The notes beneath the pieces are model-generated. The model did not search any database and was not told the origin of the DNA. It was given only the letters and a program-made list of their open reading frames with translations. This document shows, in pieces, positions 5,566-22,858 of a stretch of 53,635 nt of DNA. The translations under genes were made by a program, and so were the position numbers. This stretch comes from Bacilli bacterium. GTDB taxonomy: Bacteria > Bacillota_I > Bacilli_A > RFN20 > CAG-826. The stretch spans positions 1 through 53,635 of the forward strand of contig JAFYAZ010000026.1 in assembly GCA_017540455.1 (NCBI GenBank), written 5' to 3'. The stretch's first letter is position 1; each line of letters starts with the position of its first letter.

Positions 5566-6567
5566 ATGAAAGTTCTTTTGTATTTTGAAGGGCAAGAAGC
5601 CATCAAAACGAGCGGCATCGGCCGTGCTTTAAGCCATCAAATCAGAGCTCTTGAAAGCCAGGGCATCGAATATACCCTTAACCCAAAGGATGATTTCGAT
5701 ATCGCCCATATCAATACCCTCTGGGCCAAAAGCGGTGCCGTCTTGAGAAAATGCAAGAAAAAGGGTATCCCAGTCATCGTTCATGGCCATTCAACCTTTG
5801 AGGATTTCAGAAAATCCTTTAAGGCCTGGCAGCTCGTCGCACCTTTTTATAATTCGCGCATCAGGCGCATGTACTCACGCGCGGACCTTGTTATTACGCC
5901 AACCCCATATTCCAAAGGTCTTATCGAAGGATATGGCTTCGTTAAAAAAGTTATAGATATCTCTAATGGAATCGATCTTCAGGAATATGCTGAAAATCTC
6001 GATGCCCAGAAAGCTTTCAGAGAGAAGTTTGGCATTAAAGAAGGCGAGAAATTCGTCATGGGTGTCGGCTTCCCGTTCGAAAGAAAAGGAATCCAGGACT
6101 TCTTTGAAGTCGCTAGATCATTCCCTGATGTTAAATTCATCTGGTTTGGAGCTCTTCAGAAGATTCTGACCAACCATAAAGTCAAAGTCTGGGTTAAGAA
6201 CCGTCCAGCTAACGCCATCATGGCCGGATACTGCAAAGGCGACCTAATTCATGGCGCATATCAGCAGGCGACATGTTTATTCTTCCCATCATTAGAAGAG
6301 ACTGAAGGCATTGTCGTTTTAGAGGCTTTAGCCAGCCATTGCCCTCTTGTTGTGCGTAATATTGGCGTTTATGAACCCTGGCTCAAAGACGGGGTGAACG
6401 CTCACATCGAAAAAGATAACGAAGGCTTCGTCAAAACCATCGACTCTTTGCTCAAAAACGGTGAGAACAAAGCTATCCTCGATGAAGGCTATAAAGTGGT
6501 TGAGGCGAGAACCCTCGAGATCGTTGGAGGCAAATTAAAAGAGGCTTACGAGAGCCTCCTTAAATAG
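5566..6567 (+). CDS. GT4 glycosyltransferase, probably a glycolipid synthase (CpoA-like)
   Basis: SGIGRALSHQ, HGHSTFEDF and FFPSLEETEGIVVLEALAS (EX7E) motifs. Confidence 0.85.
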   Translation: MKVLLYFEGQEAIKTSGIGRALSHQIRALESQGIEYTLNPKDDFDIAHINTLWAKSGAVLRKCKKKGIPVIVHGHSTFEDFRKSFKAWQLVAPFYNSRIRRMYSRADLVITPTPYSKGLIEGYGFVKKVIDISNGIDLQEYAENLDAQKAFREKFGIKEGEKFVMGVGFPFERKGIQDFFEVARSFPDVKFIWFGALQKILTNHKVKVWVKNRPANAIMAGYCKGDLIHGAYQQATCLFFPSLEETEGIVVLEALASHCPLVVRNIGVYEPWLKDGVNAHIEKDNEGFVKTIDSLLKNGENKAILDEGYKVVEARTLEIVGGKLKEAYESLLK

Positions 6568-7815: not shown

Positions 7816-7821
7816 AAATCA

Positions 7822-7850
7822 TCCCTCAGCAAAATGAGGGATTTTTTATT
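7822..7850 (+). terminator. Intrinsic terminator after rpsU
   Basis: TCCCTCA-GCAAAA-TGAGGGA plus T tract. Confidence 0.85.
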
Positions 7851-7855
7851 ACGAG

Positions 7856-7894
7856 TTTCTGAAAAAACGGATTTCCAACTCTATATGGTAAGTG
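7856..7894 (+). promoter_or_regulatory. Putative alternative-sigma promoter motif, copy 1
   Basis: TTTCTGAAAAA-N12-CTCTATAT-GGTAAGTG; same blocks and spacing as the copy at 22084-22122. Confidence 0.55.
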
Positions 7895-9100
7895 ATGGGA
7901 ATTTTTGTTTATCAGGGAGATGAGGAAGGCTGTGGCCTTGCCACCCTCAAAATGCTCCTCTTGGATCTGACCAAGAAAAAAGGCTATCGCTATCTGACTT
8001 CGGAGAAAGAGACGGATATCTCATTAGAGGATATCCGGCATATTGCTTTCAAAGAAGGCGTCGACATCAAGTGGAAGCGGGCATCTTCTAAGGAAGAATT
8101 GCTCTTAGCCACGAGTTTTCCTTTACTCATTCTTTTAGAAGGAAGCAACAAAGGGCATCTTGTCTACTTAAAGAAAGGCACGAAGAAGAAATTCCTGGTT
8201 TATGACCCTGCCATTGGCAAGAGATGGGTGAAAAAGGAGGATTTCATTAAGGATTTCTCATGCGTGTATGGTGAGCCCGTTCTCTTTAGCGTCGAGAACT
8301 GTCCTTACACAAAGCCGAAGATCTTTTCAAAAAAGGGGTTCTTCCTTAGTTCGCTCACATCTTTACTTGGAATCGCATCGCTTTATTTCGGCCTCTATTT
8401 ATTAGGCAATGAGGATTCCTATATCGTTGTCGCTATTCTGCTTTCTTTATACGGATTACTGAGTGTTGGATCACGATTGATCAATGGTTTTTTCAGCCGA
8501 AGGTTCGATAAGCGGTGGCTCAAATACGTTCCTTCAAATTCGAAGAAGAAACTCGCTAAAAATTACGAGCGTTACTATGCTTTCAAGAGCTCAACCTTCC
8601 CAGCGGTCATGACGATTGTTGAGGGGGTAAGCGTCGTCTTTGGTCTTTCGTTCCTCTTTGGGCTCAATGACCCTTATTTCTATGTGTCCGCTATCGGGCT
8701 AAGCATCTATCTTGCGCTAGAAAGCGGCATTTTCAGAAAGAAGGTCGTCAAAAAGAAGGAATCGCTTGTCCTTGCCGAAGAAAATCTCCTTCAAGGCAAA
8801 GACAACATCCGAGAACAGCTCAAGAAGATGAGCTCAATAAGCAATAAGGCCTTTCAAATTGGGGAAGGTGCAACATATGTTCAAATCATCTATATGGCGG
8901 TGGCGATTGGCCTCGCGTTCATCCCTTCGATGATGAGTGAGAACTTCACGTTGAACTACTTCCTTTTCCATTTCTTTGGCCTCTTGGGACTTGGTCAAGG
9001 CATCAGGTCCCTCCTCAATTTCTTCGAGAACCGTTCCGAAAGAGAAAGAGCCTATATCTATTTCTTAGACAATTTCGTAAAAAAAGAAGACTCAAGATAA
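7892..9100 (+). CDS. Peptidase C39 domain membrane protein (PCAT-like N-terminus plus TM region, no ATPase domain)
   Basis: YQGDEEGCGLATLKM (Q...CG), GHLVYL and VYDPA give a Cys-His-Asp triad; about 6 hydrophobic segments; no Walker A or ABC signature; start is GTG 7892 or ATG 7895. Confidence 0.8.
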   Translation: MMGIFVYQGDEEGCGLATLKMLLLDLTKKKGYRYLTSEKETDISLEDIRHIAFKEGVDIKWKRASSKEELLLATSFPLLILLEGSNKGHLVYLKKGTKKKFLVYDPAIGKRWVKKEDFIKDFSCVYGEPVLFSVENCPYTKPKIFSKKGFFLSSLTSLLGIASLYFGLYLLGNEDSYIVVAILLSLYGLLSVGSRLINGFFSRRFDKRWLKYVPSNSKKKLAKNYERYYAFKSSTFPAVMTIVEGVSVVFGLSFLFGLNDPYFYVSAIGLSIYLALESGIFRKKVVKKKESLVLAEENLLQGKDNIREQLKKMSSISNKAFQIGEGATYVQIIYMAVAIGLAFIPSMMSENFTLNYFLFHFFGLLGLGQGIRSLLNFFENRSERERAYIYFLDNFVKKEDSR

Positions 9101-9138
9101 TTTTATCTTGGGTCGTCATGTGCTAAAGTATTGCCGAT

Positions 9139-9603
9139 ATGGAAGTTGTATTTGATAACCCTTACGGAAAAGAATTCGATTGGCTTAACGAGAGGTACTC
9201 GGAAATAACCAAAGCCGCATTCTCTTACCTTGATGTGAAAGAGAATTACGAAATCGATGTTTCTCTCGTCGATGATGAGACGATTCATCAGATAAATAGG
9301 GACTATAGGAACGTTGACCGCGTTACCGACGTCATCTCTTTTGCCTTCAATGATGATAAGGACCCAAACGACCAAATCAACTCCTTAGAGGTGCAAAAGA
9401 TGTTAGGAGAAATCCTCATCTGTTTGCCTCAGGCCAAACGCCAAGCAGCCGAGATTGGAAATACCCTTGAGCGTGAACTCTCATTCCTTTTCACGCATGG
9501 GCTTCTCCATTTGCTTGGCTATGACCACATGACACCAGAAGACGAAGCTATAATGTTCCCTCTTCAAGAGAAGATTCTTGGCCTCGTAGGAGATAAAAAA
9601 TGA
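9139..9603 (+). CDS. ybeY: rRNA maturation endoribonuclease YbeY
   Basis: INRDYR, TDVISF and HGLLHLLGYDH motifs. Confidence 0.97.
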   Translation: MEVVFDNPYGKEFDWLNERYSEITKAAFSYLDVKENYEIDVSLVDDETIHQINRDYRNVDRVTDVISFAFNDDKDPNDQINSLEVQKMLGEILICLPQAKRQAAEIGNTLERELSFLFTHGLLHLLGYDHMTPEDEAIMFPLQEKILGLVGDKK

Positions 9604-10484
9604 AAGTCGGATTCGTATCAATTCTCGGTCTTCCAAACGTTGGGAAGAGCACTTTAATAAACGCTATTCTTTCAAAGAAAGTTTCGATCGTCACTTGCAA
9701 ATCGCAGACGACCCGCGACGCTATCATGGGCGTCTATAATGAGAAAGACCTCCAGATTGTCTATATCGACACTCCAGGGCTTTTCCCTGGCGATGAAGCC
9801 CTTTACCAGATGATGGAGAAGAGCGCCCGCAGATCCATGTCCGGCGTTGATGTCATCCTTTACGTCATCGACTCTACTTCGAAGAATTACTCAAAGGACG
9901 AGGAAACCCTTGCCTCAATCAAGAGCGACGCCCCAATCATCCTTCTTTTCAATAAGATCGATGATGTCAGGGTTGAGCAGATGGAAGCACTCCTTGCCCA
10001 TTACAACGAGAAGTATCCAAACTACGAAAAGATTCAGATTTCCGCTAAAACCAACTTTGGTTTGAAAGATATCAAAAATGCGGTGGTGGCTCACCTTTCC
10101 GAAGGACTTCCATATTATCCGGAAGACGTTATCACCGATAAAGACAAGCCATTTATGGCCAAAGAAGCCATCAGAGAAGAGCTTCTCCGCTTCTTGAAAG
10201 ATGAGATTCCTCACGAATGCGCAGTTGAGGTCACTTCTTTCGAAGAGAAAGACGGCGGAATCTTCATCAAAGCCACGATCGTTTCCGAAAAAGAAGGCCA
10301 CAAGGCCATCATCATTGGAAAAGGCGGCGATATGATTAAGAAAATCTCCATGAGCGCTCGTCACAACCTCGAGAAGATGTGGCGTTCCCATGTCACGCTC
10401 ATCTGCCGCGTCGAATGCGTCCCTGGATGGAGAAACGATCCTCGCAAACTCCAGAAACTAGGATATGGCAGAAAAGACGATTAA
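9600..10484 (+). CDS. era: GTPase Era
   Basis: GLPNVGKST, QTTR, DTPG, NKID and KH-domain IIIGKGG. Confidence 0.97.
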   Translation: MKVGFVSILGLPNVGKSTLINAILSKKVSIVTCKSQTTRDAIMGVYNEKDLQIVYIDTPGLFPGDEALYQMMEKSARRSMSGVDVILYVIDSTSKNYSKDEETLASIKSDAPIILLFNKIDDVRVEQMEALLAHYNEKYPNYEKIQISAKTNFGLKDIKNAVVAHLSEGLPYYPEDVITDKDKPFMAKEAIREELLRFLKDEIPHECAVEVTSFEEKDGGIFIKATIVSEKEGHKAIIIGKGGDMIKKISMSARHNLEKMWRSHVTLICRVECVPGWRNDPRKLQKLGYGRKDD

Positions 10485-11184
10485 GAACATCGAAGGCATC
10501 GTCCTTCGTTCAACCCCATATAAAGAAAGTGACGCCATGGTCAATGTTTTGTCGCATGACGGTCTCTTTTCTTTTTTAGGCAGGGGTGTTCAAAAGAACA
10601 TCAGCAAGAACTTCGCTTCCTGCCAACTTCTCTCCAAAGCCAAATTCTCATTGGTTGAACAAAAGAACGGTGGGTATGCCCTTTCAGAGAGCGAGGTCAT
10701 TTCCTTGCCTGATGGCAAAGGGGATTTGACGAGATTAGCCATTTTTAGCTTCCTTAGTGAGGTCAGCGTCAAGCTCATCTCAGAAGAAGAGGCTGGTCAG
10801 ATCTATCCTTGGCTTTGCCAAACCATGGATTTGCTCAAAGAGCCAGGCAAAGAAGCATCCAGTGCGTTGATTTACCTATGCCATTTGTTATCCGTCATTG
10901 GCTACGGTTTAGAGGTCAATGAGTGTGTCACGTGTGGCAAAAAAACCAATATTGTTGGCGTTTCCTTTAGAGATGGTGGCTTTGTTTGTTCCGATTGTGC
11001 CTCGCCTTCTATGAAGATGACACCAAGAAACCTCAAGATCCTCAGATTCTGCTTCAAATGTGGACTTGAGGATGCCTTAAGGGTCAGCTTTGAACCTAAA
11101 GAAAGCCTTTCTTTATTAAAGAACCTTATTAGTTACGTTGAAGATTTCACGGGCGTCAAAGTCAGAAGTCTTGAGTTGCTTTAA
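10465..11184 (+). CDS. recO: DNA repair protein RecO
   Basis: [15 protein letters not shown]-terminus; CVTCG...GGFVCSDC zinc finger; era-recO-glyQS context. Confidence 0.92.
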
Positions 11185-11228
11185 AAACCACTTTAAAATC
11201 AAAAGTGTTCACTTATAAAGGGTTGACT

Positions 11229-11257
11229 TTGATATTTGTCAACCCCCATATTATACT
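11229..11257 (+). promoter_or_regulatory. SigA-type promoter of glyQS-dnaG-rpoD
   Basis: TTGATA-N17-TATACT. Confidence 0.65.
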
Positions 11258-11297
11258 AGGCTCTCGTAGAGAGAATTTTTTATTCGAAAGGATTGAT

Positions 11298-12677
11298 ATG
11301 GCAAACAAAAACTCATTTGAGAAAATCACGACCCATCTTCAACAGACCGGTTATGTTTTTCCAGGTTCACAAATATATGGAGGCTTATCCAACAGTTGGG
11401 ACTACGGCCCATTAGGCGCCGAGCTCAAGAAGAACGTCCGTGAGGCATGGTGGAAGAGATTCGTTCAGGAATCCCCAACCAACGTCGGCATTGATGCTGG
11501 CATTCTTATGAACCCACGCGTTTGGGAAGCCACCGGTCACGTCACGACCTTCAATGATCCAATGGTCGACTGCAAGGCTTGCAAAGCCCGTCACCGTGCC
11601 GATGAACTCATCAAATCCGAATTCCCAGATGCCGATGTCGATAACATGACCTTCGAGCAGATGGATGAATTCATCAAAGAGCATGACGTTAAGTGCCCAG
11701 TCTGCGGAAAGGCTGATTTCACTCCAATCCGTAAGTTCAACATGATGTTCAAGACCCACATCGGTGTTACCGATGACAGCAGCAGCGTCGTCTACCTCCG
11801 TCCAGAGACCGCTCAAGGTGTCTTCGTTAACTTCAAGAACGTCCAGCGTACCCAGAGAAAGAAGCTCCCATTCGGTATTTGCCAGACTGGTAAGAGCTTC
11901 CGTAACGAAATCACCCCAGGGAACTTCACTTTCCGTATCCGCGAGTTCGATCAGATGGAAATGGAATTCTTCTGCAAGCCAGGAACCGACCTTGAATGGT
12001 TCGCTTACTGGAAGGATTACTGCCTCAAATTCGTCGAAAGCCTTGGACCAAAAGCCGAAAACCTTCGCTTCCGCGATCATGAGCCAGCCGAGCTTGCTTT
12101 CTACTCCAAAGCCACGACTGACGTCGAATATGATTTCCCGGATCTCGGTTGGGGAGAAATCCTCGGTGTCGCCGACAGAACCGACTATGATTTGAAGCGT
12201 CACCAGGAATACAGCAAAGAGGATATGACCTACTTTGATCCTGAGACCAACGAGAAATACATCCCTTATGTCATCGAACCATCCATGGGTCTTGATCGAC
12301 TCATGCTCATGGTCATGATGGACAGCTACGATGAGGAGACCTTGGAAGGTGGCGACATCCGTACCGTCATGCACATCCTCCCAGCTCTTGCCCCATACAA
12401 AGTTGCAGTTCTCCCATTATCCAAGAAGCTTGAAGACAAGGCTAAAGAAGTCCTTTCCGTCCTCAACAAGCATTTCCAGGTTACCTATGATGTCACCGGT
12501 TCAATCGGCAAGCGTTACCGCCGCCAGGACGAAATCGGCACCCCATACTGCGTAACCGTTGACTTCGATACTCTTGAAGACAACACCGTCACCATCCGCG
12601 ACCGCGATACCATGCAGCAAATCCGCATGCCTATCGACGAGCTCGTCAAACATTTCGAAGACAAATTCGTATTCTAA
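11298..12677 (+). CDS. glyQS: Glycyl-tRNA synthetase, alpha2 type
   Basis: [40 protein letters not shown] and [15 protein letters not shown] motifs. Confidence 0.97.
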
Positions 12678-12699
12678 GTTCGCTTAAAGGAGGCAATTG

Positions 12700-14523
12700 A
12701 TGGCCTATTCACCTGAACTCATCGACGCATTATTGGCCCAAACCGATATCGTCGATGTCATCAAGGCTTACATCCCGGTTACCAAAAAGGGTCGCAACTA
12801 CATGGCCCTTTGTCCTTTTCATGATGACAAGCACCCAAGTTTGTCCATCTCCCCAGAGAGACAAATCTTCAAATGCTTCGTCTGTGGAACAGCCGGAAAC
12901 GCCATCACATTTGTCTCCAAATACGAGAAGATTTCTTATGGCGAAGCTGTCCGTAAGGTAGCCGATATTGTCGGCTTCCATGACGACAGACTCGAAAAAG
13001 AGGCCTTTGTCCCCAAGAAAGACCTAACTCTTGAACCTTTATATAACTGCATCAATGACTTGCAGAAGTTCTATGAGTACGACCTCAGCATCCCTGAAGG
13101 CAAGATAGCGAAAGATTACCTTGCCGAAAGGAACATCGACGAGGCACAGGTAAAGAAATACAAAATCGGTTATTCCTTAGCCGATGGCCGAAAGACCATC
13201 GAGTTCTTGCTCGCCCATAACCATTCCCTCAAGTCAATTGAGGACATCGGCATTGCCTTAGCGAGCAATAACGCCAAAGACGCTAACGCCGGAAGACTTA
13301 TCTTCCCGTTATGCGATCCAAATGGCCAGGTCGTCGGATTCAGCGCTCGTAAGCTCAAGAAAGAGCAGGATCCGAAGTACGTCAATTCTCCTGAGACCCC
13401 AATCTTCCATAAAGGAAAGATTCTCTATAACTACCATAACGTCAAAGGAATCACCCGCCATGAAGGCTATGTCTACGTCCTTGAAGGATTCATGGACGTC
13501 ATGGCTCTCGACAAAGCAGGAATTCCTAGCGCCGTCGCCCTTATGGGTACCGCCTTATCATCTGACCAAATCGCATTATTAAGGAAACTTAACTGCGAAA
13601 TAAGGCTTTGCCTTGATGGTGATGCCGCCGGCCAAATTGGCATGATGAAGATCATCACTCAGCTTAATGCTGCCGGCTTGCAATACCGTTTGGTCAGCAA
13701 TCCTAACGATCTACGCGACCCAGACGACATTCTCCAAGAAAGCGGTCCTGAGGCCTTAAAGGAAGCCATGTCCCATCTTGTCGATGCGATGGACTTCCAA
13801 ATTAACTATTACCTCAACGTCAAGAAACTTGAGACACCTGATGAACGCCGCAAAGTCATGCTTTACTTCATTAGGTTCCTCAGAAATGTCCCGGCGGGAA
13901 TCGACCGTGATAACTACATTGCCAAACTCTCAAAAGCGACTGGCTATGAGATGGAGGCAATCAGGTTTCAAATCAACCGAAAGATCGTCAGCAAAGAGGA
14001 CGAAGAGGAGGCGAGCATCGCCGTTGATGAACTCGACTTCTCAAGACTCCACCCTGAAAAACTCCTCCAAAAGAGGCTTCTTAGGGCGGAACGACAGGCT
14101 CTCTACTATATGCTTAACGAGATGAGTGCAGTCAAATACTTCGAAGATAAGATCGGCAATTTCTATACATCGGTCTACAACCAGATCGCCAACTACATCG
14201 TCGATTACCAAGAGTCGCGAAAGGAAAGCGTTACATTGCCGTTGCTTATCAACGATATCTCGAACGCCAACGATGAAGACGCTGATACGCTTATCAGCCG
14301 TCTGACCGAAATATCATCTGAACGTTATTACCCGCCTTACACTGACCAAGGGATGCAAGAGGTAATCAGCGTCATCAAAGACGAGAAAGACAAGATATTC
14401 GATCGTGAGCAAACCACCAAAGCCATATCAAGGAAAGATGCCGACCCTCATCAGATCGGCGAAGCCCTCAAAGACTTTGCTGCCAGACAAAGAGAGCGAC
14501 TCAAACGAAATAAAAAAGATTAA
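12700..14523 (+). CDS. dnaG: DNA primase
   Basis: CPFHDD...CFVC zinc finger; [17 protein letters not shown] and DPD TOPRIM motifs; SD AAGGAGG. Confidence 0.97.
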
Positions 14524-14542
14524 AGAAAGGAAGCAAAACCCC

Positions 14543-16081
14543 ATGCCAAAGAAAGAAAAACAAGAACTTGCTGAAGAGAAGAAAACCAAGAAGTCTCCTG
14601 CTAAGAAAGCAGCCAAAAAGAAAGCCGAGGATGATGCTTTCGAATCTTTTGACGCCGGATTCAACGACGTCGATATCGATGATTCTGAGGATTCTGGCAT
14701 TGATAAAACCTTAGAAGCCATCAAGAAACAATTCATGAAAAAGGCCAAGTCCAGCGGCTCGGTCAACCAAGAAGAGCTCATGGATGTCGCTGCGAAACAC
14801 GATATCAGTGAGAACGACCTAGAGCGCCTCATCGCTTACTTCAGCGAGAACAATGTTAAAGTCATCACTGATGAAGAAGAAGCCGAAGATGAAGACATCG
14901 ATCCATCGATGCTCGATCTCGAAAAAGCCAACCGCGAAGCCGAAGAAGAAATCGATGACGTCGATATCGATGAAACCGATCAGGAAATCGCTAACATCGA
15001 TGACAGCACGATTGATGAGTTCGCTAGAGTCCAATCCGGCGACGTCAAAGTCAATGACTCCGTCAAGATGTACCTCAAGGAAATCGGCAAGGTCCGCTTG
15101 CTTACCGCCAAAGAGGAAACCGAGCTCGCCGAAACCATCAAACGTGGCGAGGCTGCAAAAGAACAGTACGACAAGAGAATCGCCCACAAGGACGAGGAAT
15201 TAGCCGCTCTTAAGGCCAAATGTGAGGCCGAAGGGCTCGATCTTAGCGTTGAAACAAGCAAGCTCGAGGCCGACTTAAGAGGCCTTTACTACGAAGGTGA
15301 GGAAGGCGTTAACGCTAAGAACCGCTTAATCACCGCGAACCTCCGTCTTGTCATCGCTATCGCCAAGCACTACGTTGGCCGTGGCATGCATTTCCTTGAT
15401 CTGATTCAGGAAGGCAACATGGGTCTTATCAAAGCCGTTGAGAAATTCGACTACACCAAAGGTTTTAAGTTCTCGACCTACGCCACTTGGTGGATCCGTC
15501 AGGCCATTACCCGTGCCATCGCTGACCAAGCCAGAACCATCCGTATCCCAGTTCATATGGTTGAAACCATCAACAAGATGACCAGGGTTCAGCGTCAGCT
15601 TGTCCAAGAACTTGGCAGAGACCCAACACCAGAGGAAATCAGCAAGAAGATGGAAGGCGCTCTCACCCCAGAAAGAATCCGTGAAATTCAGCGCATCGCT
15701 CTTGAACCAGTTTCCCTTGAAACTCCAATCGGCGAGGAAGACGATTCCCACCTTGGCGATTTTATCGAAGATAAAGAAGTCCAATCCCCAGAGGAATTCA
15801 CCACAAAATCCCTCTTAAAGGATGAACTTTACGAAATCATGCACGATTTAACCGACCGCGAAGAAAGAGTCCTCAGACTCCGCTACGGCCTTGATGACAA
15901 CCGTCCAAGGACCCTTGAGGAAGTTGGCAAGGAATTCGGTGTTACTCGTGAGCGTATCCGTCAGATTGAAGCCAAAGCTATCAGAAAGCTCCGCCATCCA
16001 ACGAGAGCTAAGAGACTTGGCGACTATCAGGACGCTTATTACCCAGAGGGACCAGATACCCATTCCAAGGGCAATAAATAA
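14543..16081 (+). CDS. rpoD: Primary sigma factor RpoD/SigA
   Basis: [42 protein letters not shown] and TRERIRQIE motifs; start set at ATG 14543. Confidence 0.97.
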
Positions 16082-16102
16082 CCTTTATTCGACACAAATA
16101 CG

Positions 16103-16783
16103 ATGAAAAAGCTTTCTAACAGGTTGTTAAAACTTGCGGAATACGTTGTTCCAGGTTCTTTCGTCGCAGATATCGGAAGCGACCATTGTCTGCTTCCGAT
16201 TTTCTTATGCCAGCAAGGATTGGTAGCCGGAGCCTTCGCCGTCGATAACAAAAAAGGTCCTTACGGAAGAATGGTCGAGGCAATTAAAGAATCAGGGTTA
16301 GAGGAAAAGATCTCTCCTTCGCTCAGCAACGGCATCGAAAAGTTGGACCCAAGATGCGACACCATTGTCTTAGCTGGTATGGGTGGTCGTTTAATATCAG
16401 AAATTTTGACTAGCCATAAAGAAAGATTGGAGAACATCAAATATATCTTGGTTGATGCCCATACAGACCTTGAATTCGTCTATGATGTTCTAGCTTCATT
16501 GGGCTATGAGATCGAAATGAGCGAGTTCCTCATAGATAAAGACAAACCGTATGACATAATGCGGTGGACGAAGGCTGCTACAAAACCATCCTACACAAGC
16601 CTTGAGAAGAAGTATGGATACTTTAACGTCCAGCAGCCAAACAAGGCTTGGAGAGATTATTATTCGAGGCAGATAGAGATCAGCGAGAACATCAAAAAGG
16701 TTCTTCCTAAGGATTCAGGCAAAATTCAGGAATTGGAAGCCCAAATCAGCGAGATAAAAAACATATTAAAAATAGGCGATTGA
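16103..16783 (+). CDS. trmK: tRNA m1A22 methyltransferase TrmK
   Basis: LSNRL, ADIGSDH and LAGMGG motifs; sigA-trmK context. Confidence 0.92.
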   Translation: MKKLSNRLLKLAEYVVPGSFVADIGSDHCLLPIFLCQQGLVAGAFAVDNKKGPYGRMVEAIKESGLEEKISPSLSNGIEKLDPRCDTIVLAGMGGRLISEILTSHKERLENIKYILVDAHTDLEFVYDVLASLGYEIEMSEFLIDKDKPYDIMRWTKAATKPSYTSLEKKYGYFNVQQPNKAWRDYYSRQIEISENIKKVLPKDSGKIQELEAQISEIKNILKIGD

Positions 16784-16802
16784 TATTTCATTCGCCTATT
16801 TT
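16769..16802 (+). terminator. Hairpin terminator overlapping the trmK stop
   Basis: AAAATAGGCGA...TCGCCTATTTT inverted repeat. Confidence 0.65.
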
Positions 16803-16930
16803 GATAGTTTCATTACATTTCATTTGATAGATAAGTAGTTGTGCTTAATGAAAATTCTTCCAAACTACTAACTAACAACTAGGTTAAAACTAACGCCTTT
16901 CTAAACGACTGGAACGATTTTTCGCTGAAA

Positions 16931-17803
16931 TTAGACCTTTTCAAGGTAGGCTTTAACTTCCTCAAATTCCCTTAATCCAGTCGATGCTCCGCTGATCAAA
17001 GCGGCGTGTTTTGATTTCTTAAGGAAAATCTTTTTAAGGTCCTCGACATCAAGGCATCTGAGCACGACAGCCTTTGGATATTTGGCTGTAGCAAGGTCAT
17101 ATAACTTCATGGTGTTGTTGCTGGTTTTGGAACCCATCACTATATAAAGATCTATATCGCTTGGAGCGGTGCAAATGGCACTTTGTCGTTTGTCTGTAGC
17201 ATCACAAACCCTTGCAGCGACGTCGATTTCAGGAAAATGGTCTTTAAGTAAGGAAACTGATTCTTTCATCTCTTCAGTTCCCATGGTTGTTTGGGAGACT
17301 AAAAGTGGATTTTTGACGCTTATTTGAGCAAAATCGAAGGATTTTTGAGGTTCATAGAGGAAAATTTTGGATTCGTCGATCTTAAGAGTGCCTTCAGTTT
17401 CGGCATGACCGGCTTGTCCGATGTAGATGACCTCGCCGCCTTCCATAATCCTTTTCTTAATAAGAGTGGAATTGGCTCTTACGAAAGGACAGGTTGCGTC
17501 ATATCTAATTAATCCTTTAGCTATTGCTTTCTCGTCGAGGTGAGGATCGTGGCCATGGGCAGAAAATACGATAATATCGCCCTTTTTAAGCGTATCAATC
17601 CATTCAGAAAGGCTCTTTTTGCGTTCATCTAAAATGATGAAACCGTCTTTCTCAAGGTCGCTGATAACTTTCTCGTTGTGAACAAGGTTCCCGAGAATAT
17701 AAATAGGCTGGTTCGGGTGTTCTTTCTTGGCTTTGTAAGCATGATCAAGAGCTCTTTGAACTCCTGCGCAGAAGCCGTGGGGATTTATCACTGTGACCTT
17801 CAT
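16931..17803 (-). CDS. ispH: HMBPP reductase IspH (LytB)
   Basis: GFCAGV, VHN, SAHG, DATCPFV, GHAE, QTT, VCDAT and SNN motifs. Confidence 0.95.
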   Translation of the reverse strand: MKVTVINPHGFCAGVQRALDHAYKAKKEHPNQPIYILGNLVHNEKVISDLEKDGFIILDERKKSLSEWIDTLKKGDIIVFSAHGHDPHLDEKAIAKGLIRYDATCPFVRANSTLIKKRIMEGGEVIYIGQAGHAETEGTLKIDESKIFLYEPQKSFDFAQISVKNPLLVSQTTMGTEEMKESVSLLKDHFPEIDVAARVCDATDKRQSAICTAPSDIDLYIVMGSKTSNNTMKLYDLATAKYPKAVVLRCLDVEDLKKIFLKKSKHAALISGASTGLREFEEVKAYLEKV

Positions 17804-17865
17804 GGCTTTAATTATCACTCCTATATGATGCGAATAAAAGGAACTTCCTCTATAATAAACTCATT

Positions 17866-19227
17866 ATGAGTTTCAAATCGTTTAACCTCTCGCAACAATT
17901 AACAAACGCCTTAGCCAAACTAGGGTATATAGATCCGTCACCAGTTCAGAAGGCTATTATCCCAAAAGCCCTCCGTGGTGTTTCTTTGCTCGCACAGAGC
18001 GAAACCGGCAGTGGAAAGACCCATGCTTTCCTTATTCCTCTTATCGAAAAGATCGATATGAACCTCAATAGGCCACAAGCCATCGTTATTTCTCCAACAA
18101 GAGAGTTAGCCAGGCAGACCTATGAATTCGCTTTCGAGTTCACTCGTTTCTTCCCAAAATTCAAAGTCCGTCTTTATTCCTCGGAGAGCGATGTCAGCGA
18201 TAACGTCGAAGGAAAAAGCGTTCCTCCTCAGCTGATCATCGGCACCCCAGGAAGGCTTAAAGACCTTCTTATCACCAAACACATCTTCTTCTTAGGCAAC
18301 ATCAAACGCGTTGTCCTTGATGAAGCCGATATGCTTTTAGATATGGGATTCTTCGGTGATATCGAAGATATATTTGCCAACTTAGAAGACCCTCAGACAA
18401 TGGTATTCTCCGCAACCTTAAAGCAGAATCTCAAGGATGAGCTTCTCAAATTTGTAAGAAGCGATTTCCAATTTGAAAACGATAATGTTCAGACAGCGTC
18501 GACTGTTAAACACCACCTCATCGACATCAAACACATCGGCGAGAGCGCTGCTTTGCTTGCTTTCCTAAAGATCAGGAAACCATATCTGGCGATTATCTTT
18601 GCCTCAACGGTGGAGAAGGTCAACCAAATCAATAAGTCTCTGAAAGAGAACGGTTTCGACACGATCTATTTCACCGGTTCATTGGATGACCGTTCTAGAA
18701 AGAAAGCTCTCCGTCAAATTAAGAGCAACACTTGCAGCATCATCGTTGCCAGCGACATCCTTTCCCGCGGTTTAGACATCCCTGATGTCAGCGACGTCAT
18801 TTCCGTCGATCTTCCAAACGATTTAGAGTTCTACCATCATCGTGCAGGACGTACTGGAAGATTCGGAAAGTCCGGTGATTCCTGGGTTTTCTTCAATGCT
18901 GACTCTGTCAGTGGACCAATCGCTCTTCAGAAAGAAGGCGTTAAGTTCGATTACTTCTCCTTAAAAGGAAACGAGCTTAAACCAGAGACCCTTGGCCCAA
19001 GTGAGAAGCGCAAAATGACCAAGAAGAAAGAACTTCCTGAAGCCGAGATGAAAGACATCAAGATCGCCAAGGCTCTTTCGAGAACCAAAGGCGTTGAGCC
19101 AGGCTACAAGAAGAAAAAGAAAGAGGCCATCGACAAGGTTAAGCGCAAATACCGTCGAATGGCCATTAGAAACAGCGTTCGTAAACAGCTAGATATTTCT
19201 TTTAGAAATAACGATGATGAGGATTAA
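17866..19227 (+). CDS. cshB: DEAD-box RNA helicase (CshB-like)
   Basis: TGSGKT, PTRELA, GTPGR, DEAD, SAT and HRAGRTGR motifs; basic tail PGYKKK. Confidence 0.88.
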   Translation: MSFKSFNLSQQLTNALAKLGYIDPSPVQKAIIPKALRGVSLLAQSETGSGKTHAFLIPLIEKIDMNLNRPQAIVISPTRELARQTYEFAFEFTRFFPKFKVRLYSSESDVSDNVEGKSVPPQLIIGTPGRLKDLLITKHIFFLGNIKRVVLDEADMLLDMGFFGDIEDIFANLEDPQTMVFSATLKQNLKDELLKFVRSDFQFENDNVQTASTVKHHLIDIKHIGESAALLAFLKIRKPYLAIIFASTVEKVNQINKSLKENGFDTIYFTGSLDDRSRKKALRQIKSNTCSIIVASDILSRGLDIPDVSDVISVDLPNDLEFYHHRAGRTGRFGKSGDSWVFFNADSVSGPIALQKEGVKFDYFSLKGNELKPETLGPSEKRKMTKKKELPEAEMKDIKIAKALSRTKGVEPGYKKKKKEAIDKVKRKYRRMAIRNSVRKQLDISFRNNDDED

Positions 19228-20270
19228 CGATTAATTTCCTCGATGAGGGCGTCATAAGCGTCCTCATCTTTTACTTCACGGACAGTCTCGCCTTTACGGA
19301 AGATGACCCATTTGCCTCTTCCTCCAGCGATGCCGATGTCAGCGTGTCTTGCTTCGCCTGGGCCGTTAACGATGCAACCCATGACGGCGACAGTTTTATA
19401 GATTCTCTTTTCTTCAAGGTACTTCATGACCTTTTTGGCAAGTGGAATGAGGTCGACAGCGGTTCTACCACAGGTAGGGCAGCTGATAAATGTTGGCCAG
19501 TCTTTCTTTAAGCCGAGATCATGGAGAAGACGCGATGCCGCCAAAACTTCTTCCTCAGGGTCTTCGCTAAGGGAAATCCTGATTGTGTCTCCGATTCCAT
19601 CTAAAAGGAGTGGGGAAAGACCCGCTGCAGAGCGAATCAAGGAAATGTCTTTTGGACCAGCTTCAGTGATACCCAAATGAAGTGGATACGGGAAATAATC
19701 TGAGGCAAGTTTATAGGCTTCTATTGTCTCCTGGACATCGCTTCCCTTTAAGGAAATGACGATATCGTGGAATCCATACTTTTCAAGCATGGCTACGTGC
19801 TTTTTCGCACTTTCAAAGAGCCATTCGCCTTTGATTTTTTCTTTTCCGAAGTAAATGGTTTTATCAAGGGAGCCACCATTGACTCCGACACGGATGGCGG
19901 CGTGTTTCTCCTTGGCTTTGTTAACGACTTCTTGGACGCGTTCTTCGCTTCCGATGTTTCCAGGATTAATCCTGATGGCGTCAACACCGGCGTCCAATGC
20001 GGCTAAAGCCAAGCGATAATCGATATGAATGTCTGCAACTAAAGGAATAGAGACTCTCTTTTTGATCTCTTTGAAGGCTTCGGCATCCTCAAAATCGAGG
20101 ACGGAGCAGCGCATCAGCTCCGCACCAAGTGCAGCGCATCTGTTAATTTGTGCCGAGACTTCCTCGATCTTGGATGTCTTAATAGAGCACATCGACTGAA
20201 TGATTACGTGGTCGCTTCCGCCAATGGATATTTGGCCTATTTGGATTTTTCTCGTCTCATTCCTTTTCAT
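19224..20270 (-). CDS. ispG: HMBPP synthase IspG (GcpE)
   Basis: IQSM, PLVADIH, RINPGNIG, LHLGITEAG, SCPTCGR and MGCIVNGPGEA motifs. Confidence 0.97.
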   Translation of the reverse strand: MKRNETRKIQIGQISIGGSDHVIIQSMCSIKTSKIEEVSAQINRCAALGAELMRCSVLDFEDAEAFKEIKKRVSIPLVADIHIDYRLALAALDAGVDAIRINPGNIGSEERVQEVVNKAKEKHAAIRVGVNGGSLDKTIYFGKEKIKGEWLFESAKKHVAMLEKYGFHDIVISLKGSDVQETIEAYKLASDYFPYPLHLGITEAGPKDISLIRSAAGLSPLLLDGIGDTIRISLSEDPEEEVLAASRLLHDLGLKKDWPTFISCPTCGRTAVDLIPLAKKVMKYLEEKRIYKTVAVMGCIVNGPGEARHADIGIAGGRGKWVIFRKGETVREVKDEDAYDALIEEINR

Positions 20271-20368
20271 ATATGAAACATTTTAAACATTTTTGTGGTT
20301 TTATTGTAGATAAATTGGCTGGTCTATGATATTCTTAGCCTCGCACGAGAAAGTGAGGGGAACAATTT

Positions 20369-20530
20369 ATGGCCATCAGCAAACGTGATCAAGTGATTCT
20401 TGCCTGCACCGAATGCGGCGAGCACAACTATATTACCGACCGCAATAAGAAGCTTCATCCTAACAAGATGGAAAAAATGAAGTTTTGCAGACGCTGCAAT
20501 AAAATGACACTCCATAAGGAATGCAAATAA
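20369..20530 (+). CDS. rpmG: 50S ribosomal protein L33 (Zn-binding form); not in the ORF track
   Basis: Own translation: MAISKRDQVILACTECGEHNYITDRNKKLHPNKMEKMKFCRRCNKMTLHKECK; SD GAGGGG. Confidence 0.96.
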   Translation: MAISKRDQVILACTECGEHNYITDRNKKLHPNKMEKMKFCRRCNKMTLHKECK

Positions 20531-20555
20531 ATAAGGCAATTGCCTTATTTTTTTT
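20529..20555 (+). terminator. Intrinsic terminator after rpmG
   Basis: AAATAAGGC-AATT-GCCTTATTT plus T tract. Confidence 0.75.
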
Positions 20556-21194
20556 ATGAAAATCGAGAGATTCAACATTGGGGACGATTATGTCTGCAAC
20601 ATGTATATCGTCGGCGAAGAAGGCGAGCCATGCATTGTTGTTGATCCAGGTGCTGACCCTAACAATTTCATTGAGAAATACGTTAGGAAACACCATAACG
20701 GACAGATAGCCGGATTCCTTTTGACGCATGGTCACTATGACCACATCGAAGGGCTAAGGCTCTGCACCATGCAAGCGCCTGTCTACGTCCACCTTCTTGA
20801 GGAAGAGTTTTTAGTTGAGCCAGCCTACAACCTTTCGCTCGATTTCCTCGATCACCTCTATATAAGAGGCCTTAAGACAAAGCTCTTTATCGACAAGGAT
20901 GTCCTTAATATCGGCAATTACGAAATCAAGGTTATCCATACGCCATTCCACACGAGGGGAAGCTCTTGTTTCTATTTCGAGAAAGAACACGTTCTTTTCT
21001 CGGGAGATACGCTCTTCCATCTAAGCATCGGAAGGACGGATCTCATCACCGGAAGTAACAAAACCGTCGAAAGCAGTTTGCAGAAACTTGTGGTTTTGCC
21101 TCCGGAGACAAAAGTCTATCCAGGACACGGTCCATCAACCACGATTGGTGATGAATTACGACTCAATCCATACCTAACGAGGTTAAAAAAGTAG
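20556..21194 (+). CDS. MBL-fold metallo-hydrolase (glyoxalase II/YqgX-like)
   Basis: THGHYDH, HTPFHTRGS, FSGDTLF and YPGHG motifs. Confidence 0.92.
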   Translation: MKIERFNIGDDYVCNMYIVGEEGEPCIVVDPGADPNNFIEKYVRKHHNGQIAGFLLTHGHYDHIEGLRLCTMQAPVYVHLLEEEFLVEPAYNLSLDFLDHLYIRGLKTKLFIDKDVLNIGNYEIKVIHTPFHTRGSSCFYFEKEHVLFSGDTLFHLSIGRTDLITGSNKTVESSLQKLVVLPPETKVYPGHGPSTTIGDELRLNPYLTRLKK

Positions 21195-21249
21195 ATACTT
21201 TACAAATCTTGGTATAGAATACCATAGTCAAAATTAAGGAGATTTTAGA

Positions 21250-21807
21250 ATGAACGTTACAGAATTACGCCCTGGCAACTATTTCGAAGATGAAAACACC
21301 CTTTATCAAGTTATCGACATCCTTCTCAACAAAACCGCTATGAGAAAGATGGTTGCTAAAGTCAAAGTTAGAAATGTCCGCACAGGTGCCATCACCGAAC
21401 TTGCCCGTAACTCCGGTTACGACGTTACCCTTGTCAGCGTCGACAAGAAACAGATGCAGTACCTCTACGATGGTGGAACTACCTTAGTCTTCATGGACCC
21501 AGATACCTACGAGCAGGTCGAACTTCCAAAGACCGGACTCGAGCGTGAGATGGGCTTCCTTGCTCCAAACGGCTTCGTTACCATCAACGCTTACGAAGAA
21601 GAAATCCTTGGCATTGAGCTTCCAGCCAAAGTTGCCCTTGAGGTCACCGATTGTGAGCCAGGCGTCAGAGGCGATACCGTCACCAACGGCGGATCCAAAG
21701 ATGCCACCCTTGAAACCGGTCTTAAGATCAGAGTTCCTCTCTTCATCGAGAAGGGCGAAAAGGTCATGGTCGACACTGCCACTGGCAAATACGATAAGAG
21801 AGCCTAA
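21250..21807 (+). CDS. efp: Elongation factor P
   Basis: QYLY, FMD, PGVRGDT, LETG and VPLFI motifs; SD AAGGAG. Confidence 0.96.
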   Translation: MNVTELRPGNYFEDENTLYQVIDILLNKTAMRKMVAKVKVRNVRTGAITELARNSGYDVTLVSVDKKQMQYLYDGGTTLVFMDPDTYEQVELPKTGLEREMGFLAPNGFVTINAYEEEILGIELPAKVALEVTDCEPGVRGDTVTNGGSKDATLETGLKIRVPLFIEKGEKVMVDTATGKYDKRA

Positions 21808-21809
21808 AG

Positions 21810-22034
21810 ATGCTACAACTCGATGTTTGGGTTTTCGTCCTTTCGTTGATTGGTGTCCTCATCGTCGGTGGTGTCGCAGGTTTCTTCCTTGCTCGTTACC
21901 TTATCAAAAAGAATCTCGAGAAGAACCCTCCAGTCACTGAAAAACAGGTTCGTGCTATGTATGAACAAGGCGGCCGCAAACTCAGCGAAAAGCAAGTTCG
22001 TGCCATCATGCACTCAATCAACAAGAACAGATAA
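21810..22034 (+). CDS. YneF/UPF0154 family small membrane protein
   Basis: N-terminal TM helix, then KNPPVTEKQVRAM...GRKLSEKQV. Confidence 0.88.
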   Translation: MLQLDVWVFVLSLIGVLIVGGVAGFFLARYLIKKNLEKNPPVTEKQVRAMYEQGGRKLSEKQVRAIMHSINKNR

Positions 22035-22049
22035 TTTCTTAAAAAATAG

Positions 22050-22078
22050 AAGAGTCACAAATTTGTGGCTCTTTTTTT
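22050..22078 (+). terminator. Intrinsic terminator after efp-yneF
   Basis: AAGAGTCACA-AATT-TGTGGCTCTT plus T tract. Confidence 0.85.
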
Positions 22079-22083
22079 AACTT

Positions 22084-22122
22084 TTTCTGAAAAATCCATT
22101 TTTCTTCTCTATATAGAAAGTG
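22084..22122 (+). promoter_or_regulatory. Putative alternative-sigma promoter motif, copy 2
   Basis: TTTCTGAAAAA-N12-CTCTATAT-AGAAAGTG; matches 7856-7894. Confidence 0.55.
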
Positions 22123-22372
22123 GAGAGGGATTCGAGTCAGCTTTTCTCGGCCGAGTATCGTTGCCGTTTGGCGGCGACAAAGCGTCTCGATGAATATTCC
22201 CTGTAATAGCTAATCACTATCGCAGTATCCGCTTGCAAGCGGTCTGGGCTTAAGAGACCTCCTAGCTCTTGAGCTTGATTACCGCGTTGCCTCTTCTTGT
22301 TCTTGTTATCGAGCGTACTCTTTAAAGGGATGTGCCCTGAGATGTCGAAACAAGAGAGAAGAGGTGCGTGGA
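22121..22372 (+). ncRNA. Candidate structured non-coding RNA of unknown family
   Basis: Five consecutive hairpins whose non-canonical pairs are mostly G-U on the + strand; lies between a terminator and the separate promoter of the next gene. Confidence 0.55.
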
Positions 22373-22383
22373 CCATATCTTCT

Positions 22384-22392
22384 TGGTATAAT
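22384..22392 (+). promoter_or_regulatory. Extended -10 promoter of a leaderless hypothetical gene
   Basis: TG-G-TATAAT, 7 nt before ATG 22400; no SD. Confidence 0.6.
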
Positions 22393-22399
22393 TTCATTC

Positions 22400-22858
22400 A
22401 TGAAATACAACCCTTGGAGAACTTCGCAATCATATAGCTTCTATCTAGTTAGCGTTTTGTATATCGCTAGCTTGGTGGTTGTGTTTTTGTTAGATCTTCT
22501 TACCAGCACCCCGATTCTTTGGGCATACGTAGTGGTATCTACGCTAGGGGAGCTGTACTTTTTGGTTATGTTCTTCGCCGACTGCCTTACCTATTGGAAA
22601 GGACACTGTCTCATCATCACAGACCAAGAACTAACGTTCTACGACGAAATAAAAAAGGAGAAGGTCAAAGTATCAATCGATAGCCTTCTGGAATTCAAAT
22701 ATGAGAACAGAGGAAAGATCTATTTCGTTTATAAAAAACATGGCAGAAATGAACATTCCTGTATAGCTCAAGTATTCACAAAAAAAGAAAGAGCCTTCTT
22801 AGATTCAATTATCGCGACCATTTACGAAAGAGACGCTAAGGTCAACCTTCATAACTAA
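22400..22858 (+). CDS. Hypothetical membrane protein (2 TM helices plus a small beta-rich cytoplasmic domain)
   Basis: Two hydrophobic helices followed by CLIITDQELTFYD...KIYFVYK; has its own promoter and terminator. Confidence 0.7.
   Translation: MKYNPWRTSQSYSFYLVSVLYIASLVVVFLLDLLTSTPILWAYVVVSTLGELYFLVMFFADCLTYWKGHCLIITDQELTFYDEIKKEKVKVSIDSLLEFKYENRGKIYFVYKKHGRNEHSCIAQVFTKKERAFLDSIIATIYERDAKVNLHN

Follow-up and report, generated by a model that had tools for sequence, protein, structure and literature searches.

A fixed-spacing, very probable promoter motif upstream of late competence genes in an uncultured rumen member of the Bacilli

We analysed a 53,635-nucleotide stretch of DNA (the window; GenBank contig JAFYAZ010000026.1 of assembly GCA_017540455.1, our contig C47) from an uncultured Bacilli bacterium whose genome, here G000, comprises 1.16 Mb in 48 contigs and is 92% complete. 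The window carries two copies of a two-block motif, one before the gene of a C39 peptidase-domain protein and the other before a structured RNA. The late competence genes of this organism share the same non-primary promoter, with sites before dprA, comFA-comFC, comEA-comEC and two pilus-like operons. The motif is very probably the promoter class of a competence regulon, neither a repeat nor an operator. The fuller account that best explains the data, in which this promoter class, a late-competence regulon and an alternative sigma factor belong together, we regard as probable.

A fixed-spacing motif before late competence genes

In the window, the sequence TTTCTGAAAAA-N12-CTCTATAT occurs twice without a mismatch on the plus strand, each copy spanning 31 bp (7856-7886 and 22084-22114), and both copies continue, after three variable bases, into AAGTG (22118-22122 in the second copy). 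No other match is present in the window even with up to three mismatches, and shuffled sequences gave a mean of 0.05 matches and two matches in 0 of 100 shuffles; the two exact copies are not chance. A terminator-like hairpin with a T run stands immediately 5' of each copy, after rpsU in one case and after yneF in the other (hairpin 22048-22075), and a consensus scan around both copies reported no TTGACA/TATAAT (sigma-70-type) promoter. An earlier reading of these letters alone, hereafter the sequence-only reading, had claimed two identical blocks with equal-length spacers ending in AAGTG, a position directly behind intrinsic terminators and the lack of a TTGACA/TATAAT match. Each of these claims held, and the two copies are the only ones in the window.

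Beyond the window, a first mismatch-tolerant scan of the genome with the pattern of that reading returned about a dozen similar sites. A position matrix was built from the 12 sites with three or fewer mismatches and taken through three iterations, which gave 16 sites scoring at least 30 with a clear gap below them. The final matrix finds 15 sites at 30 or more and 22 at 25 or more, against none at 25 or more in the reversed-sequence control. Because the matrix was trained on its own hits, we also counted a plain pattern of fixed spacing, GAAAA-N15-CTATAT. It matches the genome 11 times, whereas eleven other spacings (N8-N19) match 0-2 times each and the reversed control once; the fixed spacing is therefore real. 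The consensus of the 16 sites reads TTTTCnGAAAA-N12-CTCTATAT-N3-AAGTG, and is usually followed by GAGG or GGAGG, a Shine-Dalgarno (SD) sequence, with an ATG 6-9 nt on; otherwise the ATG follows directly. In a crude count over the genome, an SD-like word accompanies 47% of the first ATGs of long frames and 7% of internal ATGs, which only shows that SD use is common in G000.

Fifteen of the 16 sites lie upstream of a gene or RNA in the correct orientation, and one is antisense within a gene. The frame that holds this antisense copy (contig C46:25351-25404) is 560 codons long; the copy stands 236 nt ahead of an amine-oxidase gene and recurs in genomes G004 and G012. Either it acts as an antisense or internal promoter, or coding constraint has retained a site that arose by chance. 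A mobile repeat, or miniature inverted-repeat transposable element, was rejected as the source of the copies: the flanking and spacer sequences differ, and different species have the sites at orthologous positions.

The targets form a late-competence gene set (Table 1). The sequence-only reading had suggested a competence module as one possibility and a genome scan with a list of downstream genes as the check; the scan bore this out, with 16 strong sites that include, besides the DNA-uptake and pilus-like loci named above, a sigma factor gene. The two paralogous pilus-like operons driven by the motif (C1:~14500-18013 and C35:33274-35134) encode proteins without Pfam families, and the ATPase of the C1 copy matches TIGR03819 (E 4e-35). 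No ComG-type operon was identified, with no search dedicated to comG genes made, and the operon with the TadA-like ATPase stands in its place. The C1 and C35 operons may substitute for the comG pilus.

The motif is conserved in relatives, a further check that the sequence-only reading had proposed. When one mismatch is tolerated, the pattern has 11 matches in G000 and 7-8 in each of four species of the same genus, against 0 in the control, and at most three in the remaining 36 of 41 genomes. In an alignment of six genomes at the C39 site, variation falls in the spacer, in the three bases that precede AAGTG and at two inner positions of the upstream block; TTT, GAAAAA, TCTATAT and AAGTGATGGGAA are invariant. 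The site before the RNA likewise has fixed blocks and a variable spacer in seven genomes. The genus is broad, with DprA identity down to 36-55%, and a related form of the motif recurs across it in the regions that precede dprA (29 of them) and comFA (30), for example as TTGTCC-N18-CTTTAT-ATAAGTG. It is clearest in 12 comFA regions, which carry TTGTCCG, 17 more bases and CTTTATATAAGTGAAGGAGG.

The motif as a probable promoter

The geometry of the motif suggests how it would work. An alternative sigma holoenzyme would recognise the upstream block TTTTCnGAAAA, with TTTTCn as its core, and, 18 nt beyond TTTTCn, the -10 block CTCTAT, followed by AT. We infer that transcription starts about 6-8 nt past the -10, in the conserved AAGTG, and the transcript would then begin almost at the SD or, at the C39 gene, at the start codon itself. 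With its roughly 16 members, the class would make up the late-competence regulon, for the uptake and processing of DNA, in this uncultured rumen bacterium, presumably induced during competence and spanning dprA, comFA-FC, comEA-EC, the pilus-like operons, ABC transporters, small membrane peptides, an ECF-type (extracytoplasmic function) sigma factor, the C39 protein and at least one structured RNA.

Several observations bear on where transcription starts. The C39 gene has a leaderless design, with its ATG directly after AAGTG, 8 nt after TATAT, and no SD. By our own reading, 8 of the 30 comFA upstream regions have a start codon in frame 8-10 nt after CTAT and no SD. An ordinary leaderless promoter at 22384-22392 (TATAAT, 7 nt, ATG) has a geometry like that of the C39 and leaderless comFA starts. 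In a metatranscriptome, a 160-nt RNA-library contig covers exactly 22120-22279 and so starts 6 nt after CTCTATAT, in agreement with the sequence-only reading, which had placed the start a few nucleotides after this block. These RNA data are assembled contigs of a single run, in which depth and uncovered parts are uninformative.

Some findings speak against this assignment. The contig start, coming as it does from one run of assembled contigs, is a weak hint only. recA carries just the -10, start and SD part of the motif and has a matrix score of 10: on contig C20 (~1310-1370), CCCTATATATAAGGTGGAGG and the ATG are present, and the upstream block TTTACGGAAAA is displaced, 9 nt too far upstream. 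recA may be a weaker or differently controlled member of the regulon. The remaining two findings concern the upstream block, and each belongs to a different explanation of the motif.

First, TTTTCnGAAAA is formally palindromic, as an activator site would be. A dimeric activator of ComK-, CRP- or TfoX-like logic could bind TTTTC-n-GAAAA at -35 and recruit the primary sigma factor to a weak TATAT(G/A). The block is indeed a 5-1-5 inverted repeat positioned like class II activator sites, and the late competence genes of B. subtilis are activated in such a manner, according to the passage of PMC3486894 on that species. Conservation of the block is, however, one-sided: by our own count GAAAA is present at 14 of the 16 sites (GAACA and GAACG at the others) and the mirror C at 9, and in the rest of the genus TTGTCCG is followed by AAAT or TTTT, which makes no palindrome. 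The -10 fits the primary sigma factor in neither register, because TATATG lacks a T at position 6 and CTATAT an A at position 2. Nor was a ComK gene found in G000, where a PF06338 search of this 92%-complete genome gave a best E of 0.086, below the cut-off. We therefore consider such an activator unlikely, and it is quite likely that an alternative sigma factor, rather than an activator working with the primary one, reads the motif. The sequence-only reading had proposed a small regulon of an uncharacterised alternative sigma or activator; the regulon is borne out by the 16 sites, and of the two kinds of regulator the sigma factor is the one that we favour.

Second, nGAAAA resembles the SigH/ComX-type -10 (GAAT), which would place the start upstream of CTCTATAT. 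TCnGAAAA would then be an extended -10 of this type (compare the streptococcal cin-box, TACGAATA, and GAAT), and CTC-TATAT-AAGTG-GAG would form a hairpin in the 5' untranslated region that masks the SD until some factor opens it. In favour of this, the leading sigma candidate is SigH-like (see below), hairpins around TATAT pair with the SD at a majority of the sites and also across the order, and the SigH/ComX -10 contains GAAT, as it is given in table 2 of PMC4754846. Yet 5 of the 12 TTGTCCG-type comFA promoters lack GAAA, reading TTGTCCGTTTT instead, and the C39 gene and the 8 of 30 comFA genes described above fit leaderless mRNAs, not a 30-nt leader. The RNA-library contig begins at 22120, not near 22100, and the first helix of the RNA begins at 22122. 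A start upstream of CTCTATAT thus seems very improbable. We favour the reading of CTCTAT as the -10 because of the leaderless geometry, the loss of GAAA in 5 of 12 promoters, the helix from 22122, the contig start at 22120 and a likeness to the promoters of mycoplasma sigma-20, to which we return below.

Candidate sigma factors and related regulons

Besides rpoD, which lies in the window, the non-primary sigma candidates of G000 that are recognised as such are four ECF-type genes. The likeliest reader of the motif is a SigH/ComX-like factor of very divergent sequence whose gene follows rlmB on contig C13, and we put its chances at about even. This 236-aa protein, whose gene directly follows a SpoU/RlmB-type methylase gene, was detected in 49 of the 61 genus genomes. 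Its sequence changes rapidly: beyond the close clade, identity is 21-35%. When 19 members were combined in a profile, the profile hit 'RNA polymerase sigma-H factor' in the PDB (3mzy, E 8e-6), and among the NCBIfam matches of these members PRK08295/SigH-type models are the commonest specific ones (10, 7, 6, 5 and 3 of 19). The ESM Atlas places the protein among divergent sigma-70 clusters, with UviA-like and SigH-named neighbours, and confirms the look of the family only. In five species with TTGTCCG-type promoters only RpoD exceeds the Sigma70_r2 cut-off; in three of them a sub-threshold Sigma70_r2 match is a gene of about 200 aa adjoining an rlmB-like gene, the SigH-like protein. In non-sporulating Firmicutes, by the sections of PMC3364868 and PMC3486894 that treat them, SigH-like sigma factors have diverged strongly; their genes are located in the cysS-nusG region, and competence genes are under their control. 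The sequence-only reading had likened the upstream block to an ECF -35 box (TGAAAC); this likeness is loose, and the best candidate is SigH-like, not a classical ECF sigma.

The candidate has difficulties of its own. It was not found in 12 of the 61 genus genomes, including motif-carrying G056 (96% complete) and G011, and it falls under every curated family cut-off. The motif, TTTTCnGAAAA-N12-CTCTATAT, is also unlike known SigH/ComX promoters, which read AGGAWWT-N11/12-CGAAT or have a cin-box. Finally, the 164-aa ECF-type sigma gene on contig C1 has a motif-like site upstream and could be the reader instead of a target.

An ECF-type factor, whether this C1 protein, the C35/C10 pair or the C19 protein, could thus take the place of the SigH-like one. 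All of these are clear sigma-70 r2/r4 proteins, and the site before the C1 gene, TTTTGC-N18-CTCTGT, scores 35 in the matrix and is also found in G002. Autoregulation is typical of ECF sigma factors. In G002, though, the -10 before the C1-type gene reads CTCAGT, and the other types do not follow the motif. The C35/C10 type (26 of 61 genus genomes) and the C19 type (33 of 61) were not found in the 12 species with a TTGTCCG-type comFA promoter, except for 31%-identical paralogue matches in G042 and G047, and five TTGTCCG-type species have no ECF-type match whatever. We hold an ECF-type reader to be doubtful, and the C35/C10 and C19 factors were discarded as genus-wide readers since their distribution is too patchy.

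Three further observations concern these genes. The gene 3' of the C1 sigma gene encodes a serpin-domain protein and no known anti-sigma factor. In G056, G012 and G002 the C35-type ECF sigma gene is preceded, at a distance of about 60-75 nt, by a conserved palindrome, CATATCCTTGATATG, of which G011 has a variant; the palindrome looks like an operator for a separate regulator. A region-4 match on contig C4 was rejected as a sigma factor: it is ylxM, between ftsY and ffh.

Our full-text literature search brought up no paper about how competence is controlled in this lineage, and we compared the proposed regulon with systems known elsewhere. By analogy, the closest of these in architecture and membership is that of sigma-20 (MG428) in Mycoplasma genitalium and M. 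pneumoniae. The experimentally proven promoter of M. genitalium, as set out in Table 1 of PMC4446450, is TTGTCA-N18/19-ATTWAT; starts lie shortly 3' of it, and 7-26 nt separate it from the ATG; the regulon, as described in the relevant part of PMC6105099, includes recA, ruvAB, MG_390 (sunT, with a putative role in secreting peptides) and several induced non-coding RNAs (ncRNAs). Going by the same parts of these papers, both systems have two blocks with a long spacer (here TTTTCn-N18-CTCTAT, and TTGTCC-N18-CTTTAT in relatives within the genus), an ATG within 7-26 nt of the promoter, and a small regulon for recombination or gene transfer. The Mycoplasma combination of the SunT-type peptide exporter MG_390 with ncRNAs mirrors the C39 gene and ncRNA here, and sigma-20, as it is presented there, is too divergent for standard domain models, as is the candidate of G000. 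The systems differ in that the Mycoplasma regulon, on this account, centres on recA and ruvAB, whereas here DNA-uptake genes carry the motif and recA lacks the full form; the -10 sequence differs as well. This comparison suggests that mycoplasma sigma-20 is the reduced end of a wider competence-type regulon with like promoter architecture, a C39/SunT-type protein and ncRNAs.

Functionally, the regulon resembles the ComX/SigH competence regulons, with a different promoter sequence. In contrast to TTTTCnGAAAA-N12-CTCTATAT, the consensus of the latter systems has GAAT, and in streptococci is the cin-box given above. For Listeria SigH it is AAAGGATTT-N11-GGCGAAT (PMC4754846, table 2, the part of that paper on which we draw). 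In streptococci (ComX, or SigX) and in S. aureus, L. sakei and Listeria, a fast-evolving SigH-group sigma factor drives comE, comF, comG-like genes and dprA, as far as the cited portions of PMC3486894, PMC3364868 and PMC4754846 go, and the candidate sigma gene of G000 lies in the equivalent neighbourhood, after an rlmB/yacO-type methylase gene. ECF (group 4) systems offer a looser parallel in their small regulons and two-block promoters, and one ECF-type sigma gene of G000 has a motif-like site and a possible partner gene 3' of it. Unlike their promoters, as generally known, the motif has no AAC in the -35 and no CGT in the -10, and the ECF-type sigma factors of G000 that were traced across the genus (C35/C10 and C19) are not conserved wherever the motif is. 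The analysis gives a competence regulon map, a promoter and a candidate master sigma factor for a large uncultured group of small-genome rumen Bacilli; expressing the candidate sigma would be the usual route to transformability once such bacteria are cultured.

Fold-back pairing, the structured RNA and other features

The variable spacers are complementary to the SD regions that follow them. We compared the 16 nt before TATAT with the 26 nt after it at the 16 sites, with 240 chimeras as the control. The mean duplex energy with a site's own arm is -10.5 kcal/mol, against -7.7 for the chimeras (permutation p 2e-4); at 7 of the 16 sites the best-ranked partner is the native one, and the pairing spans the SD and, at some sites, the start codon. 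Folds of the dprA (29 species) and comFA (30 species) upstream regions have a like hairpin around the -10 with differing arm sequences, for example GCCTCCTT/AAGGAGGC as against ACCTCCTT/AAGGAGGT. The leaderless comFA regions of G018 and G076 fold weakly (-3.4 and -2.8 kcal/mol). In other families of the order, too, a perfect hairpin of 7-10 bp with the form CCTCC-TAT...ATA-GGAGG surrounds an AT-rich loop and the SD in front of many dprA genes; the fold-back design seems to extend well beyond the genus.

With a start after the -10, the 5' arm would be absent from the gene's own transcript and present in read-through RNA only, and such RNA would therefore be untranslatable. We tentatively propose, at somewhat less than even confidence, that the start site licenses translation of competence genes: an anti-SD spacer tailored to each gene would hide the SD and AUG in read-through transcripts, a leaderless start would be equivalent, and the arrangement would extend across the order and link to sigma-20. 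A similar fold-back inhibition is reported for the mRNA of the IS10 transposase (Davis, Simons and Kleckner 1985). There, the promoter is said to lie within an inverted repeat, so that only transcripts from outside hold both arms and hide the ribosome-binding site. In IS10 the device reportedly protects a single transposase gene, whereas here the device would span many promoters of a regulon and others would have leaderless starts. If true, fold-back would be a simple means of keeping costly DNA-uptake proteins silent despite read-through transcription.

The sequence-only reading had taken the region downstream of the second copy for a candidate ncRNA, and this RNA is structured. RNAalifold gives 84 consensus pairs; among seven sequences 32 of the 84 pairs vary on both sides and 95% of cells pair, which 0 of 500 shuffles reach, and slid controls give 4-9 pairs. 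The alignment behind the pair changes was fitted to the covariance model, which favours structure. The RNA is 79-99% identical in six related genomes, and a covariance model finds it in 8 of 78 genus genomes. One of these, found in G017, has diverged and has the same surroundings: yneF, terminator, motif, RNA, TGnTATAAT and leaderless membrane ORF (open reading frame). Rfam has no match at gathering score in the window and none inside 22120-22390 up to E 10; a known family (tmRNA, RNase P, 6S, raiA and so on) was rejected on these grounds. No terminator separates the RNA from the next promoter, whose extended -10, TGGTATAAT, is invariant in the six covering genomes and is replaced at the same position by TGTTATAAT in G017. 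As a member of the regulon the RNA most likely acts during competence, and it represents a new family of structured RNAs whose regulatory context is defined.

The C39 gene is followed on the same strand by ybeY, era and a recO-like gene (window 9139-11184), with ybeY beginning 38 nt after its stop. Pfam identifies ybeY and era, as well as rpsU (Ribosomal_S21), efp (EFP) and yneF (UPF0154); the recO-like gene was identified from its N-terminal sequence, not by Pfam. The motif before the C39 gene may also raise expression of this recombination mediator.

Table 1. Features of the window around the two motif copies, and targets of the motif in genome G000
Feature	Position	Strand	Details
Intrinsic terminator of rpsU	7821..7848	+	hairpin 7821-7842 plus T run
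Copy 1, upstream (putative -35 region) block TTTCTGAAAAA	7856..7866	+	
Copy 1, variable spacer, 12 nt	7867..7878	+	sequence differs among 6 aligned genomes, length constant within 1 nt
Copy 1, putative -10 region block CTCTATAT	7879..7886	+	TCTATAT invariant in 6 genomes
Copy 1, AAGTG, predicted transcription start region	7890..7894	+	invariant in 6 genomes; start from geometry only
Gene of 401-aa protein, N-terminal C39 peptidase domain and hydrophobic segments	7895..9100	+	Pfam Peptidase_C39, residues 4-122, E 2e-14
Intrinsic terminator after efp-yneF	22048..22078	+	
Copy 2, upstream (putative -35 region) block TTTCTGAAAAA	22084..22094	+	TTT(C/G)nGAAAAA in 7 genomes
Copy 2, variable spacer, 12 nt	22095..22106	+	differs between genomes
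Copy 2, putative -10 region block CTCTATAT	22107..22114	+	CTATAT invariant in 7 genomes
Structured non-coding RNA, ~250 nt	22120..22371	+	first helix from 22122, last helix ends ~22371
TGGTATAAT, extended -10 of ordinary (primary sigma) promoter	22384..22392	+	7 nt before ATG 22400
Gene of 152-aa membrane protein, leaderless start	22400..22858	+	no Pfam family
Targets in window: C39 peptidase-domain protein gene; structured RNA			
Target: dprA			then topA, trmFO; TIGR00732, E 9e-61
Target: comFA-comFC (ComFA-like helicase and ComF)			then secA, prfB
Target: comEA-comEC-holA			ComEC TIGR00361, E 5e-49
Targets: two paralogous pilus-like operons			one with TadA/VirB11-like ATPase; other runs off contig
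Targets: two ABC/FtsX transporters			
Target: 128-aa protein without family			Hsp20 gene adjoining
Target: 126-aa protein			weak nuclease-like match
Target: 60-aa membrane peptide			
Target: 164-aa ECF-type sigma gene (contig C1)			then serpin-domain and LuxE-like genes
Targets: three additional loci without obvious ORF			

A blastn comparison of the transcripts without an ORF with one another gave no match at E <= 0.01. At one of these loci (C25, ~44380-44540, minus strand), some 150 nt with no credible ORF come after the motif copy and extend to a hairpin that the convergent gene shares. This locus, which has no Rfam match, is a candidate second small RNA of the regulon.

Two loci contain small peptide genes. 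The 60-aa single-pass membrane peptide (C30:52640-52880) is encoded just before rplU, always with the motif upstream; conservation reaches as far as G015 and G017, and its C-terminus, PGGWxFxW(N/D/E), is fixed. We speculate that it is a pilin-like subunit, or the precursor of a signal peptide cleaved after GG by the C39 protein. On the minus strand of C15 (~5900-6340), a motif copy precedes an ORF for a 29-aa hydrophobic peptide with an SD, and three copies of a unit that ends in GCTGACTAAATAAAAAGAGC; the repeated units are perhaps tandem small peptide genes. Lastly, the sigma gene at the beginning of C35 has its first 38 codons (26-139) present a second time, at the end of contig C43 (26628-26741), and the two contigs probably join there.

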